Shown piece by piece: positions 6,624 to 54,426 of a DNA stretch of 54,834 nt. The position numbers and the translations under genes were made by a program. Each line of letters begins with the position of its first letter. Within the stretch, counting starts at the first letter, position 1. This stretch comes from Candidatus Kaiserbacteria bacterium (GTDB taxonomy: Bacteria; Patescibacteriota; Minisyncoccia; Phycocordibacterales; UBA918), in contig JANOXF010000065.1 in assembly GCA_031418275.1 (NCBI GenBank), forward strand, positions 1 through 54,834. The letters are read 5' to 3'. The notes under the pieces were generated by a model. That model was not told where the DNA came from. It did no database searches and saw only the letters and a program-made list of their open reading frames with translations.

Positions 6624-7026
6624 TGCGCGAGAGGAATCGAAGTCTACGACTTCAGTACACCTTTTGGATACTTTGCTTCGTGTGTCCTCGCAAAATATCT
6701 CAAAAGGTCTTCGATTCGTCCTCCTGTTTCCTAAAGGAAACAGTTGCGGCTCTCGCTCGCCGTCGTAAAAAGCCCCTTGCGGGGCTTTTTACTTTGTGCG
6801 AGCGAGAGGAAGCGGCGCAGCTCACTAAGTATTTTTCGCAAACTCAAAAATACTAAGTGGCTCCTGCCCTGACTCGGCCACAATCTCCTTACAGTCGATT
6901 GGCTTCGCGGCCTCCGTCTTTCGATTCCCGGTGCTCGCTACAGAAACGCAACAACGCCGACACTTTCGTGTCGGCGTTGGCGTTCTGTGCGCAGACGGCG
7001 ACGACATTCGAACCCGTTCGAACCCT
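6624..7026. repeat. mosaic of tRNA-3'-end-derived fragments (sense and antisense) plus one copy of the CTAAG hairpin
   Basis: 6624-6641 tgcgcgagaggaatcgaa and 6795-6811 tgtgcgagcgagaggaa match the reverse-complemented 3' end of tRNA-Gly(TCC) at 8103-8119. 6918-6939 ctttcgattcccggtgctcgct is a T-arm/acceptor-like piece in the opposite orientation. Hairpin at 6824-6858. Confidence 0.7.
6767..6790. terminator. terminator hairpin
   Basis: aaaaagcccc-ttgc-ggggcttttt. Confidence 0.7.
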
Positions 7027-7132: not shown

Positions 7133-7354
7133 TCAGTGAAATGATGGACGGGTCGGTGCCGACACATTCTCCTCGCCTTCCGGTGGGTCATGTGCGAGTA
7201 CCCAGAACAAGTTCAAAAGGGAGAGGTATCGACCCTTTGCTTCGGCAGGCGAGACGTCTTCGCCACACGCGTGGAGACGATCTCGGAACTGCTCCACCAC
7301 CTGTTCACTGATTTCCATGTGAGACAGCTTCGCATGGATCAGTCCGGAGTGCAC
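7133..7354 (-). CDS. hypothetical small protein
   Basis: 73-aa ORF divergent from the MazF-like gene. No motif recognised, and it lies in a GC-rich stretch. Confidence 0.3.
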   Translation of the reverse strand: MHSGLIHAKLSHMEISEQVVEQFRDRLHACGEDVSPAEAKGRYLSLLNLFWVLAHDPPEGEENVSAPTRPSFH

Positions 7355-7430
7355 GAGGTGAGTTTGTACCTGTGGGGCAACTATCTACGCGTTGCGTATT
7401 TATTCAAAAGATACTATCGTTTTAGGGACT

Positions 7431-7877
7431 ATGCTCGAATACATAAAACAATTTAACGAATGGAATGAGAAAAAGAAACGTGTTGATACGAAATCAATTT
7501 CAGAGGACTTCTTCTTTCATGAGCGCGAAGTCTGGTGGTGTGCAGTTGGTGTGAATGTTGGTGCTGAGATAGACGGAAAGAATGATGACTTTGAACGACC
7601 GATACTCGTGATTCGAAAGTTCAACAGAGACATGTTCTGGGGAGTGCCACTCACGTCGAAGGAAAAGAGTCATCCTGCGTATGTATCCATCGCGCATGAC
7701 AAGGGTGTCTCGTATGCCAATATGACGCAGCTTCGTACATGGAGCTCAAAACGACTGCTGCGTAAGGTGGGAATGGTGTCTGAAGAGAGCTTCGGTGTCG
7801 TGGTGACAAAACTACACGAGCTTATAACAATCGAACCCCACCGCGGGGGTGGGGTTCTCGGAGGCCGAAGCCACTAA
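7431..7877 (+). CDS. PemK/MazF-family toxin-like protein (long form), no obvious antitoxin partner
   Basis: REVWWCAVGVNVGAEIDGKNDDFERPILVIRKF...GVPLTS resembles the PemK/MazF SH3-like core. Start taken at ATG 7431 (MLEYIKQF...). Confidence 0.6.
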   Translation: MLEYIKQFNEWNEKKKRVDTKSISEDFFFHEREVWWCAVGVNVGAEIDGKNDDFERPILVIRKFNRDMFWGVPLTSKEKSHPAYVSIAHDKGVSYANMTQLRTWSSKRLLRKVGMVSEESFGVVVTKLHELITIEPHRGGGVLGGRSH

Positions 7878-8069: not shown

Positions 8070-8104
8070 CGTCAAGAGGTGCGTTTGTGCCTCATAGTCA
8101 AATG

Positions 8105-8175
8105 TGCGAGCGAGAGGAATCGAACCCCCAACTACTGCTTGGAAGGCAGTCGTTTTACCACTAAACTACGCTCGC
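8105..8175 (-). tRNA. tRNA-Gly (anticodon TCC), no encoded CCA
   Basis: Manual cloverleaf: GCGAGCG-TA-GTTT..AAAC-G-ACTGC-CTTCCAA-GCAGT-..-GGGGG-TTCGATT-CCTCT-CGCTCGC-A. Confidence 0.9.
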
Positions 8176-14132: not shown

Positions 14133-14203
14133 CGGGGTGTAGCATAGTGGTAGTGTACTCGGTTTGGGACCGAGTGGTCCGGGTTCGATTCCCGGCTCCC
14201 CGA
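14133..14203 (+). tRNA. tRNA-Pro (anticodon TGG), no encoded CCA
   Basis: CGGGGTG...CTCGG-TTTGGGA-CCGAG...CCGGG-TTCGATT-CCCGG-CTCCCCG-A. Confidence 0.9.
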
Positions 14204-14207
14204 CAAG

Positions 14208-14230
14208 AAAGCGGCCTTTAGGCCGCTTTT
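14208..14230 (+). terminator. terminator of tRNA-Pro
   Basis: gcggcc-ttta-ggccgc followed by TTTT. Confidence 0.75.
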
Positions 14231-14417
14231 GTCGTGGAGCCGGGAATCGAAAGACGCAGCGTTGTGAGACACTATTCACAATGTGTCGAACAAGCGAGTC
14301 GGGGTCGCGAGTGCTTACTAAAATTAGAGCAGAGCGAATAATTATAGTTAGCAACTTGTGACCGATTCCCTGCTTTTTCGTAATGAAAGATTTATAGTTT
14401 CTTTCCACAAAAGCACA

Positions 14418-14949
14418 GTTTCATGTGAAACGGTGCTTTTGTGAAAAAATTGCTTTATTATCGTTCCACGTGGCACGTTGTATAATGTTTCACATGAAAC
14501 TAATCAAGTATTACATTATCAATTAGTTTAATTCGAGCAATCTTTTCACGTGGAACGAGGCGCAAAGTAATTATATCTGTCTGCCACTCCCCTTTATATT
14601 TATTCTCAGCAATCCACGTCTGGATTGCCCTTTTGAACCGATCTATTTTATTTCTATGAACATTTTCCTCAGGTCTCCATGTTTCATGTGAAACCGAATA
14701 ATCTAATGCAGACTTTGTTTCATATGAAACAGTTTTTACCTCTACAAAATGGACCTTTCCTGATGTTTCACGTGTAATGATATCAATTTCTCCCCACTTT
14801 TTGTTGTAGTTACACTCGATAATACGAAAATCTTGCGATTCTAACCACGCAGCAGCCATTTGCTCACCTAGCTTCCCAATTTCGTTATGCCTTGCCATGT
14901 TTCATATGAAACACTAGATTGTACTTCAAATCAATGTTCCACGTGGAAC
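14418..14949. repeat. cluster of nine 14-bp palindromes GTTYCAYRTGRAAC
   Basis: Sites at 14418, 14463, 14487, 14543, 14681, 14717, 14765, 14899 and 14936 (start coordinates). Some have one imperfect half. Confidence 0.85.
14500..14898 (-). CDS. YraN-family (UPF0102) predicted endonuclease
   Basis: GKLGEQMAAAWLESQDFRIIECNYNKKWGEIDIITRE...VHFVEVKT matches the YraN pattern (GE.A..yL...G...l..N.r...GEiDli......lvFVEVK). Confidence 0.75.
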   Translation of the reverse strand: MARHNEIGKLGEQMAAAWLESQDFRIIECNYNKKWGEIDIITRETSGKVHFVEVKTVSYETKSALDYSVSHETWRPEENVHRNKIDRFKRAIQTWIAENKYKGEWQTDIITLRLVPREKIARIKLIDNVILD

Positions 14950-15293
14950 TTTGAAAGTGTGAATATTGTTAGATAACCTAACTGCAATTACATGTTTTGA
15001 GCCATATGTTAAGGACATGACTCTTTTTTAGTTCTGTCCTTTATACACATATACACTGAGTTTTCAACATCTTTCCACATATTCTCTGAGAGTGTCTTTT
15101 ATGAGGTTGGGGATGTCTTATAGAGACGAATTCCCCTGAATCAGGGTATTCTGAGGTAATTGCTGACATACGGTCGCAGCTTTGGTTGATGCTATTTTAT
15201 TCCTACAACATGAAATTACCGGCAAACTCTTTCGATTACTTCTCCTGTTTGCATAAAACGAACAGATGCGGCAAAGGGTAATGATCCCTTGGA

Positions 15294-15373
15294 TTCTAAG
15301 TATTTACTTTGCTCATAAATACTAAGATCCTTGGACGGCTGCTCGTATCACGGGCATTAGGAATAGCCAGTGA
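15294..15373. repeat. two-hairpin module, copy A
   Basis: H1 at 15294-15328 (ttctaagtattt...aaatactaagat). H2 at 15348-15373 (tcacgggc-ATTAGGAATA-gccagtga). Confidence 0.7.
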
Positions 15374-15468
15374 TATACTGCGCAGCTTTCGATTACCCAC
15401 AGAAAGCACGAAGGTGCTTTGTTCTAGCTGCGCCAATAGAAAAGGCGCCGTGAGGCGCTTTTTCATTG

Positions 15469-15492
15469 GTGCGGCCAGGGGTAATCGAAACC
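15469..15492 (-). repeat. 24-bp duplicate of the 3' end of tRNA-Gly(GCC)
   Basis: gtgcggccaggggtaatcgaaacc is identical to 15794-15817. Confidence 0.9.
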
Positions 15493-15660
15493 TGATGGTC
15501 ACTAATTCGTTTCACTCATAAGTGCCACGGGTCACGCCTCACTTGTTCGTAAACTCACATAGTTCCGGCGGTTTCGATTACCCCAAAAGGTGCGCAGGCA
15601 CCTTTCTCCTGGCCACAATCGTAAAAGTCCTTGAAGGAGACTTTTGTTTTGACCTCTGGT

Positions 15661-15733
15661 TTCTAAGCTCATTGCATTCGCTAAGAACCTCCTGCCCGGG
15701 CTCGCCCGTTTTTGTATTAGGAATAACAAAAAC
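15661..15733. repeat. two-hairpin module, copy B
   Basis: H1 at 15661-15687 (ttctaagc...gctaagaa). H2 at 15708-15733 (gtttttgt-ATTAGGAATA-acaaaaac). Confidence 0.7.
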
Positions 15734-15794
15734 ATGGCTCCGCCTCACAAAAGCGAAACGACCTGAAATTAATCAGGTCGTTTTAGCGCTTTTG

Positions 15795-15865
15795 TGCGGC
15801 CAGGGGTAATCGAAACCCCGACTAATGCTTGGCAAGCATTCGTTATACCACTTAACCATGGCCGC
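15795..15865 (-). tRNA. tRNA-Gly (anticodon GCC), no encoded CCA
   Basis: GCGGCCA-TG-GTTA..-AATGC-TTGCCAA-GCATT-..-GGGGT-TTCGATT-ACCCC-TGGCCGC-A. Confidence 0.9.
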
Positions 15866-15876
15866 AAACTACTCCT

Positions 15877-16536
15877 CTATAACTCCTTTAGAGCAAGCTC
15901 TATCCACTTCATGAGCTTTTTCTTCATGACAGCGCTACCGATTATAGTATTTCCAACACCATACTGCAATGTGCGCTTTGTACTTTTTCCTTGAATTACT
16001 TGATATTTGTGGAATTGAGCGAGGGGAATCTTAAGTGCCTTTGACCACGCTCGTGAACATTTCTCCGGATCAAGATCAGGGTAGAGCAGTACCCAAAAAC
16101 GTATCTTTTCACGTGGAACACCCAAAAACGCTTCGAGAAAAGCGATGAAGATGCGGTGGATGTCCATTTGTATATTTGCGAGACGGATGAGGCGAGAATC
16201 GCCATTATCACCCTCACCAACGTAGAGCATGAGCCCCGCAATGAAAAGGGAACTGGTCTTGTAATGTTTGTATTCAATAACTGCAGAACGCTCCGCTTCT
16301 GCATAGAGTTTTTTGTATTGATTCCCACGAGCTTTATTGAGGAGAGAGATACGTTTACTATTTTCTTTTGAGGCACGCTTCTGATTGTCTTCGGTTATTT
16401 TATGAGACCATTGCTCATCTTTGAGCCAGAGGGAAATCGTGCTCACCGAGACGCCAACGTACTTTGCAATCTCAGTATAGGTAAAACCTCGCCTACGAAG
16501 CTCTAGGGCTTTTTGTTTTTCTGCTTTTTTACTCAT
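15877..16536 (-). CDS. HTH domain plus single LAGLIDADG-like motif protein (putative free-standing homing-endonuclease-like)
   Basis: RRRGFTYTEIAKYVGVSVSTISLWLKD (HTH) and FIAGLMLYVGEGDNG (LAGLIDADG-like). Paralog of 17069-17746. It stops 11 nt before tRNA-Gly. Confidence 0.55.
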   Translation of the reverse strand: MSKKAEKQKALELRRRGFTYTEIAKYVGVSVSTISLWLKDEQWSHKITEDNQKRASKENSKRISLLNKARGNQYKKLYAEAERSAVIEYKHYKTSSLFIAGLMLYVGEGDNGDSRLIRLANIQMDIHRIFIAFLEAFLGVPREKIRFWVLLYPDLDPEKCSRAWSKALKIPLAQFHKYQVIQGKSTKRTLQYGVGNTIIGSAVMKKKLMKWIELALKEL

Positions 16537-16660
16537 GGTAGTATGAGTATATTATCTACTAAGCCATAGGTTCGATTTATACTGATTTCGAGTATGGTGG
16601 GGGATACTGGGGTCGGAGGGACTCGGTCGCAAGTTGCCAAGTCACTTTGTGGGGTCAAGT

Positions 16661-16733
16661 TTCTAAACTCTCTATGTTCGTTAAGAACTTTCTCCCCGGA
16701 CTCGGTTGTTTTGGCATTAGAAATAGCCAAAAC
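16661..16733. repeat. two-hairpin module, copy C
   Basis: H1 at 16661-16687 (ttctaaac...gttaagaa). H2 at 16708-16733 (gttttggc-ATTAGAAATA-gccaaaac). Confidence 0.7.
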
Positions 16734-16833
16734 ATACCTCCGTCTTGCACCAAGGCACGAAAGCAAAACCTTTTGCTTTCTAAACTAAAGACCACATCAG
16801 TTTTAAAACTGATGTGGTCTTTAGTTTGCCTTG

Positions 16834-16915
16834 GTGCACCCGGAGGGACTCGGTCCTTACAGGACCAGTACCCGTTGTAGCTACTTTTCTTCACTATATT
16901 CGAAAAGTAGCTCAC
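16834..16915 (-). pseudogene. decayed tRNA-like remnant (3' end resembles tRNA-Arg)
   Basis: 16834-16852 gtgcacccggagggactcg matches 16980-16998 at 18 of 19 positions. A D-arm-like TAGCTACAACGGGTA is retained, but there is no T-arm and no 5' acceptor strand. Confidence 0.5.
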
Positions 16916-16980
16916 AACAGCTTCGAGTCCCTGGACTTACAATAGAAAAACCGGCGCAAGGCCGGCATTTCTATTGTAAG

Positions 16981-17053
16981 TGCACCCAGAGGGACTCGAA
17001 CCCCCAACCCCTTGTTCCGAAGACAAGTACTCTATCCGTTGAGCTATGGGTGC
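16981..17053 (-). tRNA. tRNA-Arg (anticodon TCG), no encoded CCA
   Basis: GCACCCA-TA-GCTC..GAGT-A-CTTGT-CTTCGGA-ACAAG-GGGTT-GGGGG-TTCGAGT-CCCTC-TGGGTGC-A. Confidence 0.9.
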
Positions 17054-17068
17054 AGTAGACAGAGCTTA

Positions 17069-17746
17069 CTATCCTTTTGCGTAATGTTCAATCAACATAT
17101 TCTGCCAAAATTTCATTTTCAAGAGTAGTCCCTTACTCTTTCTCACCTCAATGCGCACGCACCCCTTGTACTGTGGGCGCTTTTTAACACCACGTCCGCT
17201 CGGTTTATATGTCGTCTTTCCAAATTGTACCGCTTGCACTCCAAGTTTATTCTGCCACCATAACTCACAGTTTTCATGAGCATAGAGTTTATGTATGTAT
17301 AAGCGAAAGTGTAACTCCAACTTCTTTACTTCAATGTACTTCTCAAGCCACTTAATCATTACGAGTGACATTTCCTCATCCGAATTTGTAAATCCCCACT
17401 GGTTCACGCGTTTTGAGCCTTCGGCCCAATATAGGGCAACACCTGTATGAAAAAATGGCTCGTGTTTATATTTTCGGAAAGTCTTTCTTGCTTCATCGAG
17501 CCACACAGACTCACGGCTTAATCTCCTATTTCTTAATATCCCAGCGACTTTAATTCTTCCGCGCGTTATGTTGCTCGTTCGACGTTTCTTGAGTGCTTTT
17601 TTCTCATAATCAGTCAGGGGGAAATCCTTTAACCAGAGTGAGAGTGAGCTTTTTGCAACTTTGACTTCATCAAGGATATCCCGATAGCTCATCCCACGTT
17701 TACGCATTTCAATTGCTCTCTCTTTTTCTTGTACTAGTGCTTTCAT
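17069..17746 (-). CDS. HTH domain plus single LAGLIDADG-like motif protein (paralog)
   Basis: RKRGMSYRDILDEVKVAKSSLSLWLKD and HTGVALYWAEGSK. It stops 15 nt before tRNA-Arg. TATAAT (17756-17761) lies 9 nt before the ATG. Confidence 0.55.
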   Translation of the reverse strand: MKALVQEKERAIEMRKRGMSYRDILDEVKVAKSSLSLWLKDFPLTDYEKKALKKRRTSNITRGRIKVAGILRNRRLSRESVWLDEARKTFRKYKHEPFFHTGVALYWAEGSKRVNQWGFTNSDEEMSLVMIKWLEKYIEVKKLELHFRLYIHKLYAHENCELWWQNKLGVQAVQFGKTTYKPSGRGVKKRPQYKGCVRIEVRKSKGLLLKMKFWQNMLIEHYAKG

Positions 17747-28807: not shown

Positions 28808-29191
28808 ATGGATGACGAAATGCTGAAAGAACAGAACCCCGAGCTCTATCGTGTCGCACGAGAAGGCGGAACAGAACCCGCATTTACCGGCGAGTATGTT
28901 CACACTGAGGAGGACGGTACGTACCACTGTGCAGTGTGTGACGCACCGCTTTTTTCCTCCGACACGAAGTTCGACAGCGGTTCTGGCTGGCCTTCGTTTA
29001 CTGACCCCGCTGTTTCGAGTGCGGTGAAATTAATCGACGACGACAGTCACGGAATGCATCGTACTGAAGTGCAGTGTGCAAAATGCAATGCACACCTCGG
29101 GCATGTGTTTCCTGACGGACCAGTAAAAAACGGAAACGTGTGTAATCGATTCTGTATTAATAGCGTGTCACTCGAACTTAAGAATGACTAA
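28808..29191 (+). CDS. msrB: peptide-methionine (R)-S-oxide reductase
   Basis: [25 protein letters not shown] and RFCINS motifs. TATACT (28796-28801) lies 6 nt before the ATG. Confidence 0.9.
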
Positions 29192-29333
29192 GCAATCACT
29201 ATTCGCTGGCGGATGCTTCTGGGTGAGCCAGTCTGGGGGACTGGCGCAAAAGGTTGTCGACAGTTTGAGGAAACGAGAACTGTCATACAACCTGAACAGC
29301 GTCTGTAAGACGAAGAGACTTAGTTATGACTAA
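29184..29333 (+). CDS. 49-codon ORF whose first 13 codons duplicate the MsrA N-terminus (status uncertain)
   Basis: [13 protein letters not shown] then [36 protein letters not shown]. Its ATG overlaps the msrB stop and its stop overlaps the msrA ATG; both junctions read ATGACTAA. Confidence 0.3.
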
Positions 29334-29811
29334 ACAAGCACTATTCGCAGGCGGGTGTTTCTGGGGACTCGAAGACCTCATCCGTACCCAACCCGGTGTC
29401 ACCGAAACCGAAGTCGGCTACACCGGTGGAACGAATGATAATCCGACATATGAAAATCACCCCGGACATGCAGAAGCAGTCCTCATTACCTACGATGACG
29501 AAATAACGTCGTACAAAAATCTCCTCGATTTCTTTTTTCAGATCCATAATCCGACAACCTTGAATCAGCAGGGGAATGACCGCGGCACTTCCTACCGTTC
29601 CGCAATTTTCTACAAAACGGAGGATGAACGAAAAGAGGCTGCAGATTTCATCGATATTGTAAACGAATCAGAACGGTGGTCTGACCCTGTCGTCACAACC
29701 CTTGAGCCATTCACCCGCTTTTGGCCGGCTGAAGCTTACCATCAGGATTATCTCGTGAAGAATCCGGGTGGATATACATGCCATGCAATTTATTTCGATA
29801 GCTACATATAA
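29326..29811 (+). CDS. msrA: peptide-methionine (S)-S-oxide reductase
   Basis: [17 protein letters not shown]...GHAEAV...YHQDYL. Confidence 0.9.
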
Positions 29812-41519: not shown

Positions 41520-42467
41520 TCACACCTGTTTCTTGTTATGAAATTTCTTGTGAATATCCCGAAGATGCTTGTCCGTCACATGCGTGTATATTTGGGTCGT
41601 CCCTATGTGTGCGTGTCCGAGGAGTGCCTGTACCGAGCGGAGGTCGGCACCATTGCTGAGGAGATCAGTCGCGAAGCTGTGTCGTATGACGTGCGGGGTC
41701 ACCTTGCGCGTAATGCCGGCTATAGTCGCATACTTTTTGATGATGCGTTGCACGCTCCGTGGGGTAAGGCGTAAGTCCTTATTATCAGTTGTCGTCTGTT
41801 TCGCGTTTTTTCCATACTGTACAAACATCGCGTCATCAAAATCTTTGCGCGCTTTAAGGTACTCTCGAATTGCTTCACGTGCGGTGTCGGAGAGAAACAC
41901 GACGCGTACTTTATCTCCCTTTCCTCGTACCGAGAATTCGTCCCGAGAAAGATCGACGTCCTCTTGTGAGAGTCCGCAAAGTTCTGAAACGCGGAGACCG
42001 GTCGAAAAGAGGAGTTCAAGCATGGCGCGGTCGCGCATGCCGACGAGTGTGTTTCGCTCGGGCGCTTCCATGAGCCGCGTGAGCTCTTCTGACGAAATGA
42101 GGTCGAGCGAACGTTCCGGAACTTTTGCGAGTTCGATACGCTCGGGGTTGAGTGAATCGACTCCGCGTCGACGTAAGTATTTCAAAAATGCACGGAGTGC
42201 GATGAGATAGTAGTTTTGTGTCTTGCGTTTGAGTGTGTCTGTTTGTCGTCCCACCTTCGTCCCAGGTTGACGATTGAGCCAGAGGCGATATTCACGCACC
42301 ATTTCTTCGGTGAGTTTTTTTGGGTCGGTTACTTTACTGTATTCAAGAAAGCGGGTGAGGTAATGATCATAGTTTGTGACCGTATGAATGCTCCGTCCCT
42401 TTTCGATTTCGAGGTACTCGAGAAATTGTCGTTTAAGCTCATGAAGATTCATCATATGCAGATACAT
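41520..42467 (-). CDS. tyrosine recombinase XerC/XerD family
   Basis: LRVSELCGL (Arg), HVIRHSFAT (H-x-x-R), LLGHAHIGTTQIYTHV (His, Tyr). The exact start is uncertain. Confidence 0.9.
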   Translation of the reverse strand: MYLHMMNLHELKRQFLEYLEIEKGRSIHTVTNYDHYLTRFLEYSKVTDPKKLTEEMVREYRLWLNRQPGTKVGRQTDTLKRKTQNYYLIALRAFLKYLRRRGVDSLNPERIELAKVPERSLDLISSEELTRLMEAPERNTLVGMRDRAMLELLFSTGLRVSELCGLSQEDVDLSRDEFSVRGKGDKVRVVFLSDTAREAIREYLKARKDFDDAMFVQYGKNAKQTTTDNKDLRLTPRSVQRIIKKYATIAGITRKVTPHVIRHSFATDLLSNGADLRSVQALLGHAHIGTTQIYTHVTDKHLRDIHKKFHNKKQV

Positions 42468-49861: not shown

Positions 49862-50179
49862 ATGAAAAAGGGGGAGATATATTTTGGTATTAACAACCTA
49901 GAGGGAGGACACCCTATAGTATTTCTGGCTGACAGGGATGAGTATAGTTTTGACGGTCTAATGCTTACACATTCATCTGGTTACGGTAACATAAAGTTAG
50001 AATCAGAACATTTCAGTTATGTTGAACCAGATTTCAAAATAAATAATACGCACCTAGTAGCAAGACGACTAATCAAAATGACAGAATGGGAACCGTTTGT
50101 GAAAAAGGGTGAGCTTTCTATGAGTGGCTTAGAACTTGTCATGAAATTAATTGATGGCCAAGAAGCAACTTACTGGTAG
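49862..50179 (+). CDS. hypothetical protein, possibly PemK/MazF-like SH3 fold
   Basis: GAGG RBS. MKKGEIYFGINNLEGGHPIVFLADRD...MLTHS resembles the toxin-family N-terminus only weakly. Confidence 0.45.
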   Translation: MKKGEIYFGINNLEGGHPIVFLADRDEYSFDGLMLTHSSGYGNIKLESEHFSYVEPDFKINNTHLVARRLIKMTEWEPFVKKGELSMSGLELVMKLIDGQEATYW

Positions 50180-50218
50180 GAATATTTACTGTAGGACACT
50201 CTTTATAAGAGATGTCTC

Positions 50219-51478
50219 TCATTTATTTTCATGTTGCACTAATGCTTTTCCCAACCCGTCAATTACTCCCACTACTAAAGCATTTCCCATAAAGAATGCC
50301 CTCTTTGTATCTGCATGTCCCGCAGTATGATTATCTGGAAACATACATAGACGTTCAAGCTCAATAGGTGTCAGACGGCGGTATCCTTTCTTTGTTTTTA
50401 TCACATGTTTAAATCTAGAGGGAGATGAACCTCCTTCAGCTGTAATAATAGTTCTAGACGGTTTGTCTAAAGGTTCGGGGAAAGCCACCGCCCCTTCTTT
50501 ATATATGAACTCGAAACCACTTGCTGCCTTGCGAGGTTCATCTTTTGCTCCTTTCAAGTATTCCCAATCTTTGAGAGAATCTTTTGAAATGAAAAACTCT
50601 TCAGGAACTTCTTTGTCATCAACTAGCTTACTTCTCAGGGTTTCAAAAGGACCATCATAGTTTGGCTCAACTCGTGCCGTGTAGACTTTATTATTAAATG
50701 CTACACCAGCATTTTCAAATGGAGATACTTTGGGTTTATCTAAATTGAAGTTCTTAGAAACGACAGCAGGGTCAATATCAATATCAAATGTCTTAATTCC
50801 TGTAACTAAGTTTGCTGGAAAAGATGATTGCACAACTCCTTCCTTTTTCAACCACTGAGTTGGGTCATTTACCTGACTGAACCTCTTTTGGATATTAGAA
50901 CCTTTCTTATATCCTAAGATAAATATTCTCCGTCTTCGTTGAGGCATTCCATAGTCGGCAGCATTAATAACACGCCATTCAACTGTATATCCTAGTTCGT
51001 TTAATGAAGAGAGAATGATTGCAAAATCTCTACCTCTTCGTGAAGCAGGTGAACTAAGTAATCTGTCTACATTTTCCAGCATTAGGTATTTAGGAGAATT
51101 CTTTCCCTTGTGTTTGAGAATATTATAGATAGACCACCATAAAACACCTTTTTTTCCTTCTAAACCAGCCGAAGCAGAAAGGTTTCTTGCAACAGAATAA
51201 TCCTGACAAGGGAATCCTCCTACCAACAAGTCGTGGTCTGGAACCTTCTCCACTACTTGAGCAATGTCTTTATTCGTATTTTCATCAATGAATCCAAACC
51301 GCTCAACGTAGGTCTCATGTGCGTGCTGTCTTTTTGTAGCTGGCTCCCATTGATTGAACCAGACGGTTTCAAAATGTTTATGGTGCTGTTTTTTGTTTCC
51401 CTTATAGCCTTCTAGGCCAAGTCTAAAACCACCGACTCCGGCAAATAACTCAACAACTTTTATCTTTTTTTCTTTCAT
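50219..51478 (-). CDS. DNA (cytosine-5)-methyltransferase
   Basis: Motif I ELFAGVGGF, motif IV GGFPCQDYS, motif VI LMLENV, motif VIII QRRRRIFILG, motif X GNALVVG. Confidence 0.95.
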   Translation of the reverse strand: MKEKKIKVVELFAGVGGFRLGLEGYKGNKKQHHKHFETVWFNQWEPATKRQHAHETYVERFGFIDENTNKDIAQVVEKVPDHDLLVGGFPCQDYSVARNLSASAGLEGKKGVLWWSIYNILKHKGKNSPKYLMLENVDRLLSSPASRRGRDFAIILSSLNELGYTVEWRVINAADYGMPQRRRRIFILGYKKGSNIQKRFSQVNDPTQWLKKEGVVQSSFPANLVTGIKTFDIDIDPAVVSKNFNLDKPKVSPFENAGVAFNNKVYTARVEPNYDGPFETLRSKLVDDKEVPEEFFISKDSLKDWEYLKGAKDEPRKAASGFEFIYKEGAVAFPEPLDKPSRTIITAEGGSSPSRFKHVIKTKKGYRRLTPIELERLCMFPDNHTAGHADTKRAFFMGNALVVGVIDGLGKALVQHENK

Positions 51479-51600
51479 AGTCAGGCTTTAAATATGGTGC
51501 TAGTATCATATCACTGGACTAAAAAGGGATCAAGGAATTCAGACATTCAACAACATTTTTTGAAAAGATCAAATCGACATGATTTTTAAACATAATTTAT

Positions 51601-52359
51601 ATGGGAACAATTAACATCGCGGACATCAAAACGGTTGAGGAACTAGAGACGGTAGCCAAACTCCATCTCGAGGGTAAGAAACTAAAGGAAGTAATGGCTG
51701 AAGTGTCCAATGACGATGAAACGAAACGTGTTTTGTCAAAGGCAAGTGTTGGTTATGTCGTTGAGGAAGGTCTTTTTGGCATAAAGAGAAACAATACCGC
51801 AGGAGCTGATATTGCCCACCTTGATGTTGAGATTAAGACAAGTCCTCTAAAAATGGGTAAAGACGGTAAACTCCGCGTCAAAGAACCTCTCTCTTTAAAT
51901 ATCATTAATTATAACGAGGAGTATAAGCACGGCAATATTAAAGATTCTTCTTTATATAAAAAGAATAAGAACATTCTGCTTGTTTGGTATGTTCATGACA
52001 AAGATTTGCCACGTTCCGAATATCTTATCAAGTATGTCTTCATCTGGAAGATGACTGACGGTGTTTTGACAGAGCTTAATCCTGACTATCAGCTCATACT
52101 GAATAAAATAAAAGCTGGTCAAGCACACCAGATACACCAATCAGACCATAATAATCTAACCTTATGTCCTAAACATGGGGGCACCTTTAAAGACCCTAAT
52201 GACAGAAAATCAAAAACGACACAACCATTTAGTGACAGTCCGGCTGAAATCAGAGCTTTTCGACTAAAGAACTCCTACATGACAAAAGTGATTCAGCGAC
52301 ACCTTGCCGAGAAACAGCCTGATTCTGTGGGTGATTTCATTGCAGAAAAGAAGTCTTAA
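51601..52359 (+). CDS. MutH/Sau3AI-family type II restriction endonuclease
   Basis: ADIAHLDVEIKTSPL...KEPLSL fits the MutH-type D..E-x-K core. It is divergent from the methyltransferase gene. Confidence 0.65.
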   Translation: MGTINIADIKTVEELETVAKLHLEGKKLKEVMAEVSNDDETKRVLSKASVGYVVEEGLFGIKRNNTAGADIAHLDVEIKTSPLKMGKDGKLRVKEPLSLNIINYNEEYKHGNIKDSSLYKKNKNILLVWYVHDKDLPRSEYLIKYVFIWKMTDGVLTELNPDYQLILNKIKAGQAHQIHQSDHNNLTLCPKHGGTFKDPNDRKSKTTQPFSDSPAEIRAFRLKNSYMTKVIQRHLAEKQPDSVGDFIAEKKS

Positions 52360-52365
52360 AAAAGA

Positions 52366-52587
52366 CTATTTTATAAAATAAGCAATGTCTTTTGCATATA
52401 TCTTTGCAAAAGTCTGTAGTTCAACCACGTCCACTCTTTGCTGTCCTGACTCGATATTAGAGATATGTGACTGTGGGCGTTTCAACTTCTTAGCGACTTC
52501 AACTTGAGTTAATCCAGCTTCCTCTCGAGCATTTCGCAAGCGTTCCACAAAATAAGCATACTCCTTAGTTTGTGTAGACCTAGTCAT
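52366..52587 (-). CDS. XRE-family HTH regulator (candidate RM controller protein)
   Basis: LRNAREEAGLTQVEVAKKLKRPQSHISNIESGQQ. Confidence 0.8.
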   Translation of the reverse strand: MTRSTQTKEYAYFVERLRNAREEAGLTQVEVAKKLKRPQSHISNIESGQQRVDVVELQTFAKIYAKDIAYFIK

Positions 52588-52614
52588 ATACCACTATCGT
52601 CTATCTAAATATTC

Positions 52615-52635
52615 AATATCCAAAGTTTGGATATT
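52615..52635. promoter_or_regulatory. perfect 10+1+10 palindrome; candidate operator of the XRE regulator
   Basis: aatatccaaa-g-tttggatatt, 28 nt upstream of the XRE start. Confidence 0.55.
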
Positions 52636-52683
52636 TTGATACTATGGCAACGAAGTTAATTTATTCGTTTTGCCAAAAAAAAT

Positions 52684-53187
52684 ATGGAACGGAATCAGGG
52701 TGAAAGAGAGAATGTATTGAAAGAGTTATGGGGTGGTTTAAAGAAATTGTTTATTGGTATCTTTGTTATTCTCTTTTCGGTCGTTATTATTGTCGTAATA
52801 GGTTCATTTACTTTAAGAGATAACAAACCTACACCGGTAGATACGGTTGCGTACGAACCAGTAGATATAGTCGTCACAAGTCAGATTGTTAAGCCTGTTG
52901 ATGGTAAGTACAGATACTTTTTTGATATTAGGAATCAGGATACGAAGTCATTTACAGGGAACGTAAACATCAATCTCGTAAATTCGTTGGGTCAATCAAT
53001 TTACGATAAGGACTTTACTGCTGTCGAACCAATCTCATCTGGTGTTGGAAAAAGTGTCTATTTTGACACAAGTACTGGGCCAACTTCCGTTCATGGTGAA
53101 AACGGTATTGAGACATTTACGTACACTGTTACAAACAATGGTCAGACGGTGAAAAGTGACTCAGGCACGATATCTACTCAAAAGTAA
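52684..53187 (+). CDS. hypothetical membrane-anchored beta-rich protein
   Basis: TM helix LFIGIFVILFSVVIIVVIGSF. A terminator follows at 53287-53316. Confidence 0.6.
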   Translation: MERNQGERENVLKELWGGLKKLFIGIFVILFSVVIIVVIGSFTLRDNKPTPVDTVAYEPVDIVVTSQIVKPVDGKYRYFFDIRNQDTKSFTGNVNINLVNSLGQSIYDKDFTAVEPISSGVGKSVYFDTSTGPTSVHGENGIETFTYTVTNNGQTVKSDSGTISTQK

Positions 53188-53286
53188 ACAAACGTTCTAA
53201 AGAATGGGTGCACGGGGTTTGCACAGGCCTTGAAATGACAACGTGCTACCAAATTTCGACTTAGAGGTAGTATTTATTAAGTTTAC

Positions 53287-53316
53287 AAAACAAGCAGGAC
53301 ACACTGCTTGTTTTTT
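53287..53316 (+). terminator. rho-independent terminator
   Basis: aaaacaagcag-gacaca-ctgcttgtttttt. Confidence 0.85.
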
Positions 53317-53566
53317 AGTTGACATTAAAAAAATATGTCGCCAAGTTTAAAGCTGTCCACAGGCAAAAACGGCTCTGTACATACATGAAGCAAAAATACA
53401 TAGACATATATAGCGGTAGTTTCCTCTCAACACAAATGCTACTTTCTCGTTATGAATATGCAATCAAGCAACCTCCAAATATCAGATGCAGAGCTGGCGG
53501 TAGCTTGGGAGCTATTCTTTAACAGAATACTTTCTGACGAGAAAGAAACAGTAACAATACACGTTC

Positions 53567-53806
53567 ATGAGAAAAGACGAATTTAAAGAGCGAGGAATTG
53601 AGTTAGCGGCATATAGCGACTGGCTTGGGCCGAAAATGAGATGGCTGGAACAGGCCAATCCTAGTTATCATCGAATGGTTGAATCAAGCGAGGCAAGACT
53701 TCCGAGAAATTGGACGTTAGAGAGATACAGAGAGCTTGTAAAGATAACTGAGAGAACAATAAAGAATCACACTTCCACAAAGGAAGCCAATGATATCCCT
53801 TTCTAA
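53567..53806 (+). CDS. hypothetical protein (phage-like small gene)
   Basis: 79-aa ORF ending 3 nt before the RepO-like gene. Confidence 0.5.
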   Translation: MRKDEFKERGIELAAYSDWLGPKMRWLEQANPSYHRMVESSEARLPRNWTLERYRELVKITERTIKNHTSTKEANDIPF

Positions 53807-53809
53807 TAT

Positions 53810-54214
53810 ATGAACGTCAAAGCCCACACAGAATTTGAAGGATTCAAGAGTGCATACGTTAGAGACTTCTTTATCTACCCAAATGTGCTTGAAGAACACT
53901 GGTATCGACTTTCTGGTTCCGAGCAGAAAGTGTTGGACTTTATTCTAAGACAGACTATCGGCTTCCGAAAAGTGACAGACCGAATTGCATTAAGTCAGTT
54001 TGTGCACGGAATAGGCACACGAAATAAAGGTACTGGTTTATCAGTCTCCCAAGTACGAAGAGCAATCAAAGGACTGGAGAATAAAAAATTCATTGTAGTT
54101 CACAGATCCAAAGTACGTCCCAGTATATTCCATCTGGTGCTTGAGAAGCCATCGTATAACCCAGAATCACACGATTACGATTCAAAAGCTTTCGAAGCTT
54201 TCAGATGGCTATAA
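53810..54214 (+). CDS. phage replication protein O N-terminal-domain-like (winged helix) protein
   Basis: LSGSEQKVLDFILRQTIGFRKVTDRIALSQFVHGIGTRNKGTGLSVSQVRRAIKGLENKKFIV fits the RepO_N pattern. Confidence 0.5.
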   Translation: MNVKAHTEFEGFKSAYVRDFFIYPNVLEEHWYRLSGSEQKVLDFILRQTIGFRKVTDRIALSQFVHGIGTRNKGTGLSVSQVRRAIKGLENKKFIVVHRSKVRPSIFHLVLEKPSYNPESHDYDSKAFEAFRWL

Positions 54215-54426
54215 ACATCCTGGGTATTCATCTTGAACATCCGGTCAGTTCATTTTGAACAGTCTAGTGTGTTCATAATGAATACCACAATATACAAATC
54301 AATAAACAATCTACAAAATCCATTTTTTTCTGGAGAAAAAAATTCTGGAGAAAAAATTGAATACGTTCAGAACTTGTTAACAACAAATATGTACATCTCG
54401 AGTGCTCTGTATACGATTGGCAAAAT

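Follow-up and report, generated by a model that had tools for sequence, protein, structure and literature searches.

The window, that is the whole stretch of 54,834 nucleotides of contig JANOXF010000065.1 analysed here, carries tRNA genes that are followed by copies of a module made of two hairpins, together with one module of a second type, M2. The copies and the associated tRNA genes are listed below (bit scores refer to two covariance models, R1 and R2).

6804..6924, minus strand: copy D, hairpin 2 with a different apex (R2 37.8 bits; sequence)
14133..14204, plus strand: tRNA-Pro(TGG), followed by copy P (ARAGORN and Rfam; sequence)
14247..14373, plus strand (also given as a minus-strand find): copy P, 43 nt after tRNA-Pro (R2 69.9 bits)
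15282..15390, minus strand: copy A, diverged, with a long hairpin 1 (R2 48.2 bits; alignment)
15479..15575, minus strand: copy E, between copies A and B, with a short hairpin-2 tip (R2 48.1 bits; orthologues in L050 and L052)
15641..15750, minus strand: copy B, canonical, 44 nt after tRNA-Gly(GCC) (R2 103.6 bits)
15794..15865, minus strand: tRNA-Gly(GCC), followed by the array B, E, A (ARAGORN and Rfam)
16641..16750, minus strand, which is the strand of the upstream tRNA-Arg: copy C, canonical core (R1 117.7 bits, R2 108.8 bits)
16855..16921, minus strand: M2, a long hairpin, GTACTG and a small hairpin with a GTA loop
16980..17053, minus strand: tRNA-Arg(TCG), followed by M2 and then by copy C (ARAGORN and Rfam; sequence)

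When the window was scanned on both strands with R2 at full sensitivity, exactly six copies and nothing further came up at E<=1, with E-values from 1e-28 to 1.5e-8. The original prediction had described three full copies, A, B and C, and these were found where it had placed them, although the conserved unit of each is somewhat longer than it had proposed. What it had taken for a fourth copy of hairpin 1 alone, at 6824-6858, does contain hairpin 1 but is actually a complete copy, D, in which the tip of hairpin 2 is altered, while copies P and E had been overlooked. Copy P has the hairpin-2 loop ATTGTGAATA and a fold z of -10.5, and orthologous copies of C are present in L013 and L053. Outside the window the covariance model, whose use had been proposed as a check, detected about 70 further copies in assemblies of Saccharibacteria, Kaiserbacteria and Paceibacteria, with pairing preserved.

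The element family is absent from the public catalogues searched. Rfam 15 at gathering thresholds reported only four tRNAs across the window and, at E<=10 over positions 14900-17100, only chance-level miRNA and sRNA matches over the modules. No blastn match to the module was obtained in phage and plasmid collections, and a full-text literature search gave no description of the element. A phage or plasmid origin was considered and rejected; two pattern matches in IMG/VR are partial and due to chance (16.9 bits).

Fold and covariation of the core

The two hairpins form the conserved core, about 95 nt long, of a non-coding, structure-conserved element family of the Patescibacteria (CPR). Read in the sense of the upstream gene, hairpin 2 comes first and hairpin 1 follows; both are irregular, measure about 40-50 nt each and are unlike each other in sequence and shape. 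Covariation of the stems had been proposed from three copies, and it is borne out far more strongly than three could allow: RNAalifold predicted 23 pairs, 17 of them with compensatory changes, and in an alignment of 31 copies made with MAFFT, which is blind to structure, double compensatory changes were found in 17 of 24 pairs. When this alignment was compared with 500 shuffles and with slid controls, 96.2% of its cells were paired versus 81.1% after shuffling, and 111 cells carried double changes versus 29, values attained by none of the 500 shuffles, while the slid alignments reached only 36-50% pairing. It is the helices that covary; invariance is seen in the internal loops, in the flanks of the loops and at the A.A mismatch.

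Both hairpins are longer than described. Hairpin 1 is extended by an AAG/CTT helix and a GGN/NCC helix; in hairpin 2 the invariant internal loop TCG/CTCC is followed by two further covarying base pairs and GRC/GYC. As for the loop of 10 nt in hairpin 2, which had been called invariant, the exact ATTAGRAATA is restricted to copies A, B and C; the loop is probably an ATT/AAT pairing around a variable triloop (AGG, AGA, ATG or GTG). In copy A, hairpin 2 contains a single G.A mismatch, and the CGTAG in the tip of hairpin 1 is conserved in part only. The conserved linker was confirmed, its pattern occurring four times where 0.42 occurrences are expected by chance. The ends of the core, AGRCGGAG on one side and TTGACCCC on the other, are fixed and have no inverted-repeat relation. 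As a statement on structure, the reading of the module as a conserved fold, either a structured RNA or a hairpin DNA site bound by a protein, is strongly supported.

The evidence on the strand is split. In 69 of 74 copies the more stable fold is that of the strand in the sense of the upstream gene (mean -32.7 versus -28.1 kcal/mol), whereas the single conserved G.T pair, present in 44 of 62 copies, pairs on the antisense strand only. A typical structured RNA is expected to show an excess of wobble pairs; here the non-Watson-Crick cells comprise 15 G.T, 22 A.C and 38 others, with no wobble excess on either strand, a split that is roughly that of random single changes if about half of these are transitions. 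In the sense direction a terminator scan placed the core behind a competent-looking intrinsic terminator, and therefore RNA of the core would exist by read-through only. The core hairpins are not followed by T-runs on either strand and so do not correspond to intrinsic terminators themselves; the terminator-like hairpins are the tips of a separate and variable basal hairpin, H0, outside the core.

Gene ends, flanking copies and turnover

The position of the module downstream of tRNA genes had been described correctly, but the strand on which it had been written is antisense to the tRNA for copies A to E (five of the six, copy P being on the other strand) and, in the wider set, for 43 of the 44 tRNA-associated copies. 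Across all loci, 44 of 67 tRNAs have a copy within 500 nt downstream, a proportion that is biased upward because loci were picked for containing a copy. The copy is co-directional with the upstream tRNA in 43 of these 44 cases, and the gap is usually 43-84 nt. Copies are also found, again co-directional and at a distance of 7-123 nt, behind protein-coding genes for DnaJ, ClpP, S9, L7/L12, EF-G, FtsZ, transketolase and a ComM-like protein (the upstream genes include rplL, rpsI, fusA, dnaJ, clpP and ftsZ). In the sampled loci the element thus occupies the positions behind most tRNA genes, and it also follows the final gene of operons with strong expression. The basal hairpin, the copies of tRNA ends, the tandem arrays and the placement behind protein-coding genes had all been overlooked earlier.

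The full unit consists of three hairpins, which in the direction of the upstream gene are H0, hairpin 2 and hairpin 1. The 5' arm of H0 is the 3' end of the upstream gene, whether that of a tRNA or the final codons of a protein-coding gene, its tip resembles an intrinsic terminator in the terminator scan, and hairpin 2 typically begins within about 1 nt of it. In 47 of 60 copies the 22 nt preceding the core contain an exact complement of at least 8 nt to the end of the upstream gene; the median length of the complement is 11 nt versus 5.6 after shuffling, and in 22 copies it stops 1 nt short of the core. This pairing covaries between orthologues, being TATTTAGGC/GCCTAAATA in L001 versus CATTTAAGC/GCTTAAATG in L037, and GGCA/TGCC in the window versus GGTA/TACC in L053. 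The basal hairpins and the copies of tRNA ends described in the window are as follows.

6798..6815, minus strand: direct copy of the tRNA-Gly(TCC) 3' end, after copy D (sequence)
14184..14251, plus strand: H0 of copy P, formed by the tRNA-Pro 3' end, a terminator hairpin and, in inverted orientation, a second 23-nt version of the tRNA 3' end (repeat I10, 96% complementary; sequence)
15385..15435, minus strand: diverged inverted copy of the tRNA-Gly 3' end with an inserted hairpin, before copy A (sequence; T-loop pattern matches)
15466..15492, minus strand: direct copy of the tRNA-Gly(GCC) 3' end, from T-loop to CCA, after copy E (repeat family D1, 96% identity to 15791-15817)
15570..15617, minus strand: inverted copy of the tRNA-Gly(GCC) 3' end, before copy E, with a hairpin inserted exactly at the acceptor/T-stem junction (sequence; kept in L050 and L052)
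15746..15796, minus strand: H0 of copy B, in which CACAAAAGCG pairs with CGCTTTTGTG around a terminator-like hairpin and the 5' arm takes in the final bases of tRNA-Gly (sequence; terminator scan)
16746..16839, minus strand: H0 of copy C, in which the tRNA-end copy GTGCACCAAGGCA (16828-16839) pairs with TGCCTTGGTGCA (16746-16757) (repeat I5)

Inside the H0 of copy C lie a 23-bp hairpin (16782-16827) and a small conserved hairpin, AAAGCAAA-N4-TTTGCTTT (16760-16779), a layout that recurs in L053 with a compensatory change. The M2 module is flanked according to the same logic as the main module, by an inverted (16922-16934) and a direct (16833-16854, with the CCA end) copy of the tRNA-Arg 3' end, and homologous modules are present in L002, L013, L034, L042 and L050.

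Some copies in the other loci are also flanked by direct repeats of the target; in L016, L017 and L029 these are 19-20 nt of a tRNA end, and in L018 about 25 nt from the end of clpP. The inverted copies too are derived from the target (in L018 from 11 nt of clpP coding sequence, in L004 from 10 nt of coding sequence, in other cases from 16-23 nt of tRNA ends), and the inverted copy halts 0-3 nt from the start of the direct repeat. Target duplications, where present, measure 10-34 nt and are variable in length; in most canonical copies they are at chance level (median 7 nt versus 5.9 in controls). Certain tRNA-end copies carry a CCA while the adjoining gene does not. The presence of CCA is mixed, and CCA-encoding genes could account for it. 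The T-arm and CCA pieces had also suggested a tmRNA or permuted tmRNA, a candidate that was rejected, as neither ARAGORN nor Rfam detected one and the pieces correspond to the tRNA next to them.

Copies at orthologous sites change at a slower pace than the neighbouring genes, and almost solely through compensatory pairs. Copy E is 93-98% identical (window versus L052 and L050) where the adjoining gene is 76-80% identical, and eight of its nine substitutions form four compensatory pairs. Copy B, by contrast, is missing from the orthologous site in L050 and L052, the module content varies across four syntenic relatives, and tandem arrays as well as decayed copies were observed. Copies within a genome are only 71% identical (15-30% divergence), as against about 85% identity to copies in other classes, and the comparison of identities within and between genomes gave no sign of recent bursts. 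Because of the tandem arrays, the copies of target ends and the presence/absence differences between relatives, we infer that duplicative insertion at gene 3' ends accounts for the spread and turnover of the family.

Concerning genes that could act on the element, an all-against-all comparison of the ORFs of 50 loci found only housekeeping synteny and no recurring partner gene; among these ORFs no transposase, integrase or reverse transcriptase recurs near copies. The 20 window ORFs scanned with Pfam include no reverse transcriptase, and neither they nor the recurring neighbours include a RAYT (Y1) transposase or a TnpA. Their sole tyrosine recombinase is XerC/D-like (41520-42467) and lies 25 kb away. 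A gene for a MazF-like toxin (7392-7877) stands between tRNA-Gly(TCC) and its array, and small variable genes occur at the tRNA-Arg flank in relatives. The HTH proteins encoded beside the tRNAs (15877-16536 and 17069-17746) were considered as possible LAGLIDADG nucleases and set aside; they belong to a conserved single-copy family of Saccharibacteria and are missing near copies in Kaiserbacteria and Paceibacteria. In these proteins Pfam and NCBIfam detect the HTH domain alone, a sequence search of the PDB gave no match, and an AlphaFold model (pLDDT 86) has weak I-DmoI-like fold matches only (E 0.25-1).

Known systems and possible explanations

We tentatively favour a fold that is recognised by a protein on read-through transcripts. 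The element would act in folded, single-stranded form, with a lineage-specific protein recognising its invariant unpaired bases, and the most likely substrate would be the RNA of transcripts reading through the terminator. H0 would hold the tRNA or mRNA 3' end in a long helix, and a factor that processes or protects this end, or that provides fail-safe termination, would be recruited by the two hairpins. In its spread and turnover at gene 3' ends such an element resembles the co-transcribed repeats Correia, ERIC and BOX. It should be noted, however, that several observations speak against RNA: a wobble excess is missing and the one conserved G.T pair pairs on the antisense strand only; the arrays, decayed copies and direct target repeats resemble mobile DNA; the terminator precedes the core; and no partner protein is found among the recurring neighbours of copies.

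Correia (Neisseria), ERIC and BOX/RUP (pneumococcus) are, like the element, small structured non-coding repeats near gene ends, and they are transcribed with their neighbours and affect RNA processing or stability. Members of the Correia/MITE type, however, have terminal inverted repeats, short fixed target duplications and copies that are near-identical within a species, and the element has none of these: its core ends are not inverted repeats, its target duplications have no fixed length, and the inverted repeats that flank it are copies of the local gene end and not of the element. It also differs from the Correia group in being common to class-level CPR lineages at about 85% identity.

A possible, though rather unlikely, explanation is a hairpin site of single-stranded DNA, similar to REP/REPIN or attC, that folds during replication, transcription or DNA uptake. 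A structure-specific recombinase or transposase encoded elsewhere in the genome would recognise it and would insert and duplicate the units at gene 3' ends, and any RNA would be incidental. REP/BIME and REPIN of proteobacteria are short non-coding hairpin repeats found in extragenic positions at the 3' ends of transcription units, often beside terminators; they are numerous in each genome, non-autonomous and long-persisting, and their partners are the RAYT transposases. The element is likewise short, non-coding, hairpin-forming and multi-copy at the 3' ends of transcription units, but instead of palindromes of 20-40 nt with a 5' GTAG in inverted doublets it has two different, irregular hairpins in a core of about 95 nt, a fixed orientation and a linkage to tRNA ends. 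The likeness to attC lies in structure kept over sequence, conserved unpaired bases, Watson-Crick covariation, 3' position, fixed orientation and tandem arrays. On the other side, attC has one hairpin and the element two, the RYYYAAC/GTTRRRY boxes were not evident on inspection of the consensus, no intI or attI is nearby, and the units are usually gene-free and scattered behind housekeeping genes. Palindromes derived from IS200/IS605 (PATE) do not match either, hairpins 1 and 2 being unrelated to each other.

In favour of such a DNA site are the almost purely Watson-Crick pairing, with mismatches that look like random single changes, and the unpaired bases and A.A mismatch kept in variable stems, as in attC and the ends of IS200/IS605. 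The arrays, the absence of copy B (which adjoins the tRNA) from the orthologous site, the decayed copies, the differences among relatives and the direct repeats of tRNA ends and of the clpP end point the same way, as do the M2 family with like flanks, the lack of a detected promoter and the XerC/D-like gene as the only tyrosine recombinase among the scanned ORFs. Against it, an orientation bias of 43 in 44 is not usual among REP or MITE elements, the neighbourhoods of copies share no recurring transposase, RAYT or integron integrase, the identities within and across genomes give no evidence of recent bursts, the ends lack inverted repeats, the target duplication has no fixed length, and the structure of one orthologous copy, which appears not to move, is strongly constrained.

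A retro- or snap-back origin appears improbable. According to this explanation a terminated transcript would fold at its terminator hairpin and prime the copying of its own 3' end, which gives the inverted copy; the polymerase would then switch to the module RNA, and the product would integrate at a gene 3' end. It is consistent with inverted copies that are contiguous with the hairpin and target-derived (L018, L004, tRNA ends) and stop within 0-3 nt of the start of the direct repeat, with the fixed ends of the module core, with targets that are abundant transcripts (tRNAs, rplL, rpsI, fusA) and with the CCA on some tRNA-end copies but not on the adjacent gene, although CCA-encoding genes could explain the latter. 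However, no reverse transcriptase was seen in the 20 scanned window ORFs or in recurring neighbours, many hairpin tips are unlike the terminator after the direct repeat, and the inverted copies often hold a conserved inserted hairpin that simple copying does not explain. Class C group II introns are placed in an orientation-specific manner right after terminator hairpins, with EBS/IBS complementarity to the upstream flank, and the element shares both the placement after a terminator and a segment complementary to the upstream flank. It has no intron domains or reverse transcriptase and measures only about 100-300 nt, and Rfam gave no group II intron at E<=10 over 14900-17100, the other two copies being searched at gathering thresholds only. 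Group II introns, like TIGR-Tas arrays, bridge RNAs and retron RNAs, were set aside on unit size, invariant internal loops and the missing adjacent protein gene. The term mobile double-hairpin element is in use for fungal and chytrid mitochondrial DNA, for example in PMC4478555; those elements are likewise small, look mobile, consist of two adjacent hairpins and are scattered between the genes of compact genomes. The analogy is one of form only, with no sequence relation, another host and no tRNA-end logic. It is equally improbable that the inverted and direct copies of the upstream gene end arise at insertion, from the target or from its transcript; in that case the modules would mark a new class of non-autonomous mobile element targeting the 3' ends of abundant CPR transcripts, and the double hairpin would be a handle for a polymerase or a recombinase.

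Still less probably, the modules and tRNA-end repeats are arm or att remnants of genomic islands or prophages that a conventional integrase has inserted into tRNA genes. The classical att signature consists of such direct repeats, here spanning the tRNA 3' end between T-loop and acceptor, and the MazF-like toxin gene and the small variable genes at the tRNA-Arg flank would fit, but such repeats accompany only a subset of copies and bound about 170-330 bp of DNA without an integrase. Moreover, the module also stands behind protein-coding genes with no tRNA nearby, the viral, phage and plasmid collections hold no copy, and compensatory evolution keeps modules at orthologous sites.

It is very improbable that the strand on which the module had been written carries a small RNA gene of its own, which would be convergent to the tRNA gene and end at a shared bidirectional terminator. 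A hairpin with an A-tract and a T-tract does follow the module on that strand, and the lone conserved G.T pair is a wobble there only. On the other hand, the 60 nt upstream hold about 0 bits of conserved information and no promoter or promoter-like site, another terminator hairpin directly adjoins the start of the module in several loci, and this is the less stably folded strand in 69 of 74 copies.

Finally, a 26-residue peptide on the minus strand, for instance a hydrophobic peptide like those of type I toxins, can practically be dismissed: the reading M-F-x-L-F-L-M-x-K...SLET followed by a stop exists in only about 9 of 31 canonical copies, 12 of the 31 have no ATG, many stop after 17-18 residues, about one third of the copies are put out of frame by a 1-nt indel between the hairpins while the downstream nucleotides are still conserved, and the frame is missing from A, D, E and P, which are diverged. 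Residues 3 and 8 co-vary only because their codons base-pair, and the GGAG is 1-2 nt from the ATG and hence too close for a Shine-Dalgarno site.

Meaning for the biology of the CPR

The CPR, or Patescibacteria, hold a large share of bacterial diversity in tiny genomes for which almost no non-coding elements have been described. The covariance model can be used to annotate these genomes, and the invariant loops provide a defined bait for finding partner proteins. The element accounts for many tRNA-end fragments in these genomes that could otherwise be mistaken for pseudogenes or att sites, and the inverted and direct repeats, being taken from the target, point to a mode of insertion that has not been described before. 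In the sampled loci, which were picked for containing copies, the element stands behind about two thirds of the tRNA genes. Alternatively to a function in the host, it may be a very successful genomic parasite of gene-end sites; its compensatory upkeep, its sharing across classes and its sites at gene ends make it likely, however, that it has a role in finishing, processing or insulating the most active transcription units.

Copies in the window and in other genomes

Two covariance models were used, the first made from homologues; the second, broader one searched the entire window, on both strands, with filters switched off. The broader model found six copies of the double hairpin at E<=1 and none besides. 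The three full copies of the original prediction (A, B and C) were confirmed at their coordinates; its fourth hairpin 1 is present, not as a lone hairpin but within a full copy (D) with a different hairpin-2 tip, and two more copies (E and P) had been overlooked. Three tRNA genes (Pro, Gly-GCC and Arg-TCG) lie within 14.1-17.1 kb, and a fourth, Gly-TCC, lies outside that region.

Copies and neighbouring genes in the window
6804-6924, copy D
14247-14373, copy P (second model; match on the - strand, in the strand sense of the original prediction)
15282-15390, copy A
15479-15575, copy E
15641-15750, copy B
16641-16750, copy C
8104-8175, - strand, tRNA-Gly-TCC
14133-14204, + strand, tRNA-Pro
15794-15865, - strand, tRNA-Gly-GCC
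16980-17053, - strand, tRNA-Arg-TCG
15877-16536 and 17069-17746, - strand, two HTH paralogues, 26% identical

The gene content of the window points to Saccharibacteria or another CPR bacterium; DUF5667, a CCA-adding enzyme and YraN are among its genes, and Saccharibacteria MAGs share synteny with the region. The HTH paralogues, each ending 11-15 nt before a tRNA gene, have an HTH at the N-terminus, together with a long helix and an alpha/beta domain that carries a GLxLYxGEG / LYWAEGS motif; their family is conserved and syntenic in Saccharibacteria, and the AlphaFold model (pLDDT 86) gave only weak matches to an I-DmoI-like fold.

One pattern scan of species-representative genomes yielded 20 loci, true homologues in about 16 cases, from Candidatus Saccharibacteria, Kaiserbacteria, Paceibacteria and unclassified Patescibacteria MAGs, and a metagenome scan added a further 29. 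The further copies that the original prediction had proposed to look for do exist: covariance models recovered 68-70 in the collected loci, with pairing preserved, some of them in diverged subfamilies whose hairpin-2 tips differ or whose hairpin 1 is longer. Rfam 15 contains no similar family, the element was not found in INPHARED phages, PLSDB plasmids or IMG/VR, and a literature search found no description of it. Two canonical copies stand behind an ftsZ gene on a 4.4-kb contig (JBLHQB010000046.1) that was binned with a Flavobacteriaceae MAG and bears the label Patiriisocius sp. MAG; the contig is probably of CPR origin and mis-binned.

Pairing and its maintenance among relatives

RNAalifold, applied to 16 copies, predicted 23 pairs, with compensatory double changes in 17. 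We also aligned the 31 canonical copies with MAFFT, wrote the structure down by hand and compared it with 500 shuffles and with slid controls. Standard pairs occupied 96.2% of cells (81.1% when shuffled), and both sides had changed in 17 of 24 pairs (10.6 when shuffled) and in 111 cells (29 when shuffled); none of the 500 shuffles reached the observed values, and the slid controls paired at 36-50%. Judged by these alignments the two-hairpin structure is real, and the proposal of covarying stems around a conserved loop is upheld.

Each hairpin is longer than had been described. Hairpin 1 consists of GGN/NCC, an internal loop, AAG/CTT, a bulged T, TTCT/AGAA, the A.A mismatch, 1-3 more pairs and a small covarying tip; hairpin 2 of GRC/GYC, an invariant internal loop TCG/CTCC, two strongly covarying pairs, a 1x2 loop, the 8-bp stem and ATT-NNN-AAT-A. 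In both, the unpaired parts are the invariant ones, a pattern that would be expected if a partner reads shape together with specific bases.

Four relatives were fetched via the neighbouring HTH protein (82-86% amino-acid identity). Copy E stands at the same place in the window and in two of them (L052 and L050), differing from the window at 2 of 97 positions in L052 and at 7 in L050; of these nine substitutions, eight make four compensatory pairs (T-A to C-G or G-C, A-T to G-C). The adjacent protein gene is just 76-80% identical in nucleotides among the same relatives. On these grounds copy E is strongly constrained for pairing at a fixed locus. Copy B and its own hairpin are missing at the orthologous site of L050 and L052, where the tRNA is directly followed by the terminator that stands after B in the window; the difference may be due to an insertion or to a deletion. 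Module number and type behind tRNA-Arg and tRNA-Gly vary among the four relatives, as do the small genes there. B and C are only 71% identical, while each shares about 85% identity with copies from other lineages, and nothing indicates that copies multiplied in a recent burst in the window's genome.

Genes are gained and lost at a hot spot in the tRNA-Arg flank: close relatives have different small genes there (acetyltransferase, glyoxalase; 3497-3910 of L051 and 3433-3819 of L052), and the window has only modules (16537-16979). Between tRNA-Gly(TCC) and a module array carrying its 3'-end copies lies a gene for a MazF/PemK-like toxin (7392-7877), preceded by a small ORF (region 7190-7877), and this arrangement suggests cargo inserted into that flank. 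Elsewhere, a 48-nt direct repeat, 83% identical (29176-29223 and 29318-29365), lies where two adjacent ORFs begin; on inspection by eye, each seems to code for an N-terminus of the form MT-K-Q..., and the pair would then suggest MsrA-like genes in tandem. The stretch 50000-54300 has a GC of 0.37-0.40, against about 0.48 elsewhere, and is probably the remnant of a mobile restriction-modification element or of a prophage.

Genes of the low-GC stretch
50219-51478, C-5 cytosine methylase
51601-52359, MutH/Sau3AI-like endonuclease
53810-54214, phage replication protein O-like gene

Position behind genes and flanks of the unit

The location downstream of tRNA genes was borne out: among all loci, 44 of the 67 tRNA genes with enough downstream sequence have a copy within 500 nt, usually at 43-84 nt. 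This is an upper estimate, the loci having been chosen for a copy; unselected tRNAs also carry copies, for example all five in one locus (L017). In 43 of the 44 the strand originally written is antisense to the tRNA, so that the element, once reverse-complemented, is co-directional with it. Copies in the same orientation follow genes for DnaJ (two orthologous loci), ClpP, the ribosomal proteins S9 (two loci) and L7/L12, EF-G, FtsZ, transketolase and a ComM-like ATPase, which we take to be mostly the last genes of strongly expressed operons.

In the upstream gene's direction the unit consists of the gene's 3' end (T1), a variable terminator-like hairpin, an optional small hairpin, a segment complementary to T1 (T'), and the core, in which RAGRCGGAG, hairpin 2, hairpin 1 and TTGACCCC follow T'. 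Often TAG, a small conserved hairpin AAAGCAAA-N4-TTTGCTTT and CG stand between the terminator-like hairpin and T'. This small hairpin, whose loop is usually CTGC, occurs at 16760-16779 of the window and in L008, L013, L016, L020, L029 and L053; in some copies it is sited exactly at the acceptor/T-stem junction of an inverted tRNA-end copy.

In 47 of 60 copies the 22 nt before the core contain a stretch of 8 nt or more that is exactly complementary to part of the 140 nt preceding them (median 11, against 5.6 when shuffled), and in 22 copies this stretch ends 1 nt from the core. T' can complement sequence that plainly belongs to the target: in L018 it matches 11 nt within the conserved end of clpP that codes for GLVD, in L004 it matches 10 nt of a coding region, and at the window's tRNA-Pro, L009 and copy E it matches 16-23 nt of tRNA, T-loop to acceptor. 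T1 and T' covary between orthologues (TATTTAGGC/GCCTAAATA in L001, CATTTAAGC/GCTTAAATG in L037; GGCA/TGCC in the window, GGTA/TACC in L053).

About 15 of 59 copies ('class II') have after the core a direct target copy, from T-loop position 56 to the 3' end, sometimes with CCA. A closing helix joins it to T', units stack in tandem as T-h-T'-module-T-h-T'-module-T, and several carry a hairpin within T' exactly at the acceptor/T-stem junction. A second structured module (M2), unrelated to the double hairpin, is found in equivalent slots behind tRNA genes, with one inverted and one direct copy of the tRNA 3' end on its flanks; it consists of a long hairpin, GTACTGA and a small hairpin whose GTA(A) loop is fused to the T-loop, and occurs also in L002, L013, L034, L042 and L050. 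Some tRNA 3'-end copies end in CCA though the adjacent tRNA gene encodes none.

tRNA-derived and second-module features in the window
16833-16854, 15466-15492, 15267-15282, 6798-6815, 6624-6640 and 14229-14251, partial tRNA 3'-end copies (T-loop to acceptor, both orientations)
16855-16921 and 6641-6709, M2

Strand and possible function

We conclude that selection acts on the fold of a single strand. Four observations favour the sense strand, either as RNA or as non-template DNA: the orientation rule, the link of H0 (the variable basal hairpin) to the gene 3' end, the more stable predicted fold in 69 of 74 copies and the finding of no conserved promoter for the antisense strand. One conserved G.T (44 of 62 copies, alternating with C-G) could pair on the antisense strand only. 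Two observations count against classical RNA: the core stands behind a terminator-like hairpin, and the non-Watson-Crick cells number 15 G.T, 22 A.C and 38 other, which is roughly what random single changes would give if about half were transitions, with wobble tolerance on neither strand. The sense strand is somewhat more likely, be it as RNA or as single-stranded DNA.

We tentatively prefer an element that sits where transcription units end (3') and works on read-through transcripts. H0 would lock the tRNA or mRNA end into a long helix, the two hairpins would offer their invariant loops to a putative lineage-specific protein for processing, protection or fail-safe termination, and the family may have spread by duplicative insertion, as with other co-transcribed bacterial repeats. 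The main rival, possible if rather doubtful, is a REP/REPIN- or attC-like single-stranded DNA site for a recombinase encoded elsewhere; a XerC/XerD-type tyrosine recombinase gene (41520-42467, - strand) is the sole recombinase among the window ORFs scanned. A more novel but improbable idea is that snap-back copying, with the terminated transcript itself as template, produced the inverted and direct target copies. Conventional att remnants are quite unlikely, and an antisense small RNA gene is very unlikely. The 26-residue peptide (...SLET) offered as an alternative is rejected with near certainty: only about 9 of 31 canonical copies give the product, 12 of 31 lack the ATG, about one third have a 1-nt indel between the hairpins that alters the frame while downstream nucleotides stay conserved, many stop after 17-18 residues, and the frame is wholly missing from the diverged window copies.

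Structured non-coding repeats at gene ends are an already known kind of object. The family itself has no counterpart that could be found, nor have several of its features: the near-systematic, one-orientation link to tRNA 3' ends, the target-complementary arm, the hairpin at the acceptor/T-stem junction and the conservation across CPR classes. It should be noted that the tRNA 3'-end copies risk being confused with pseudo-tRNAs or att sites.
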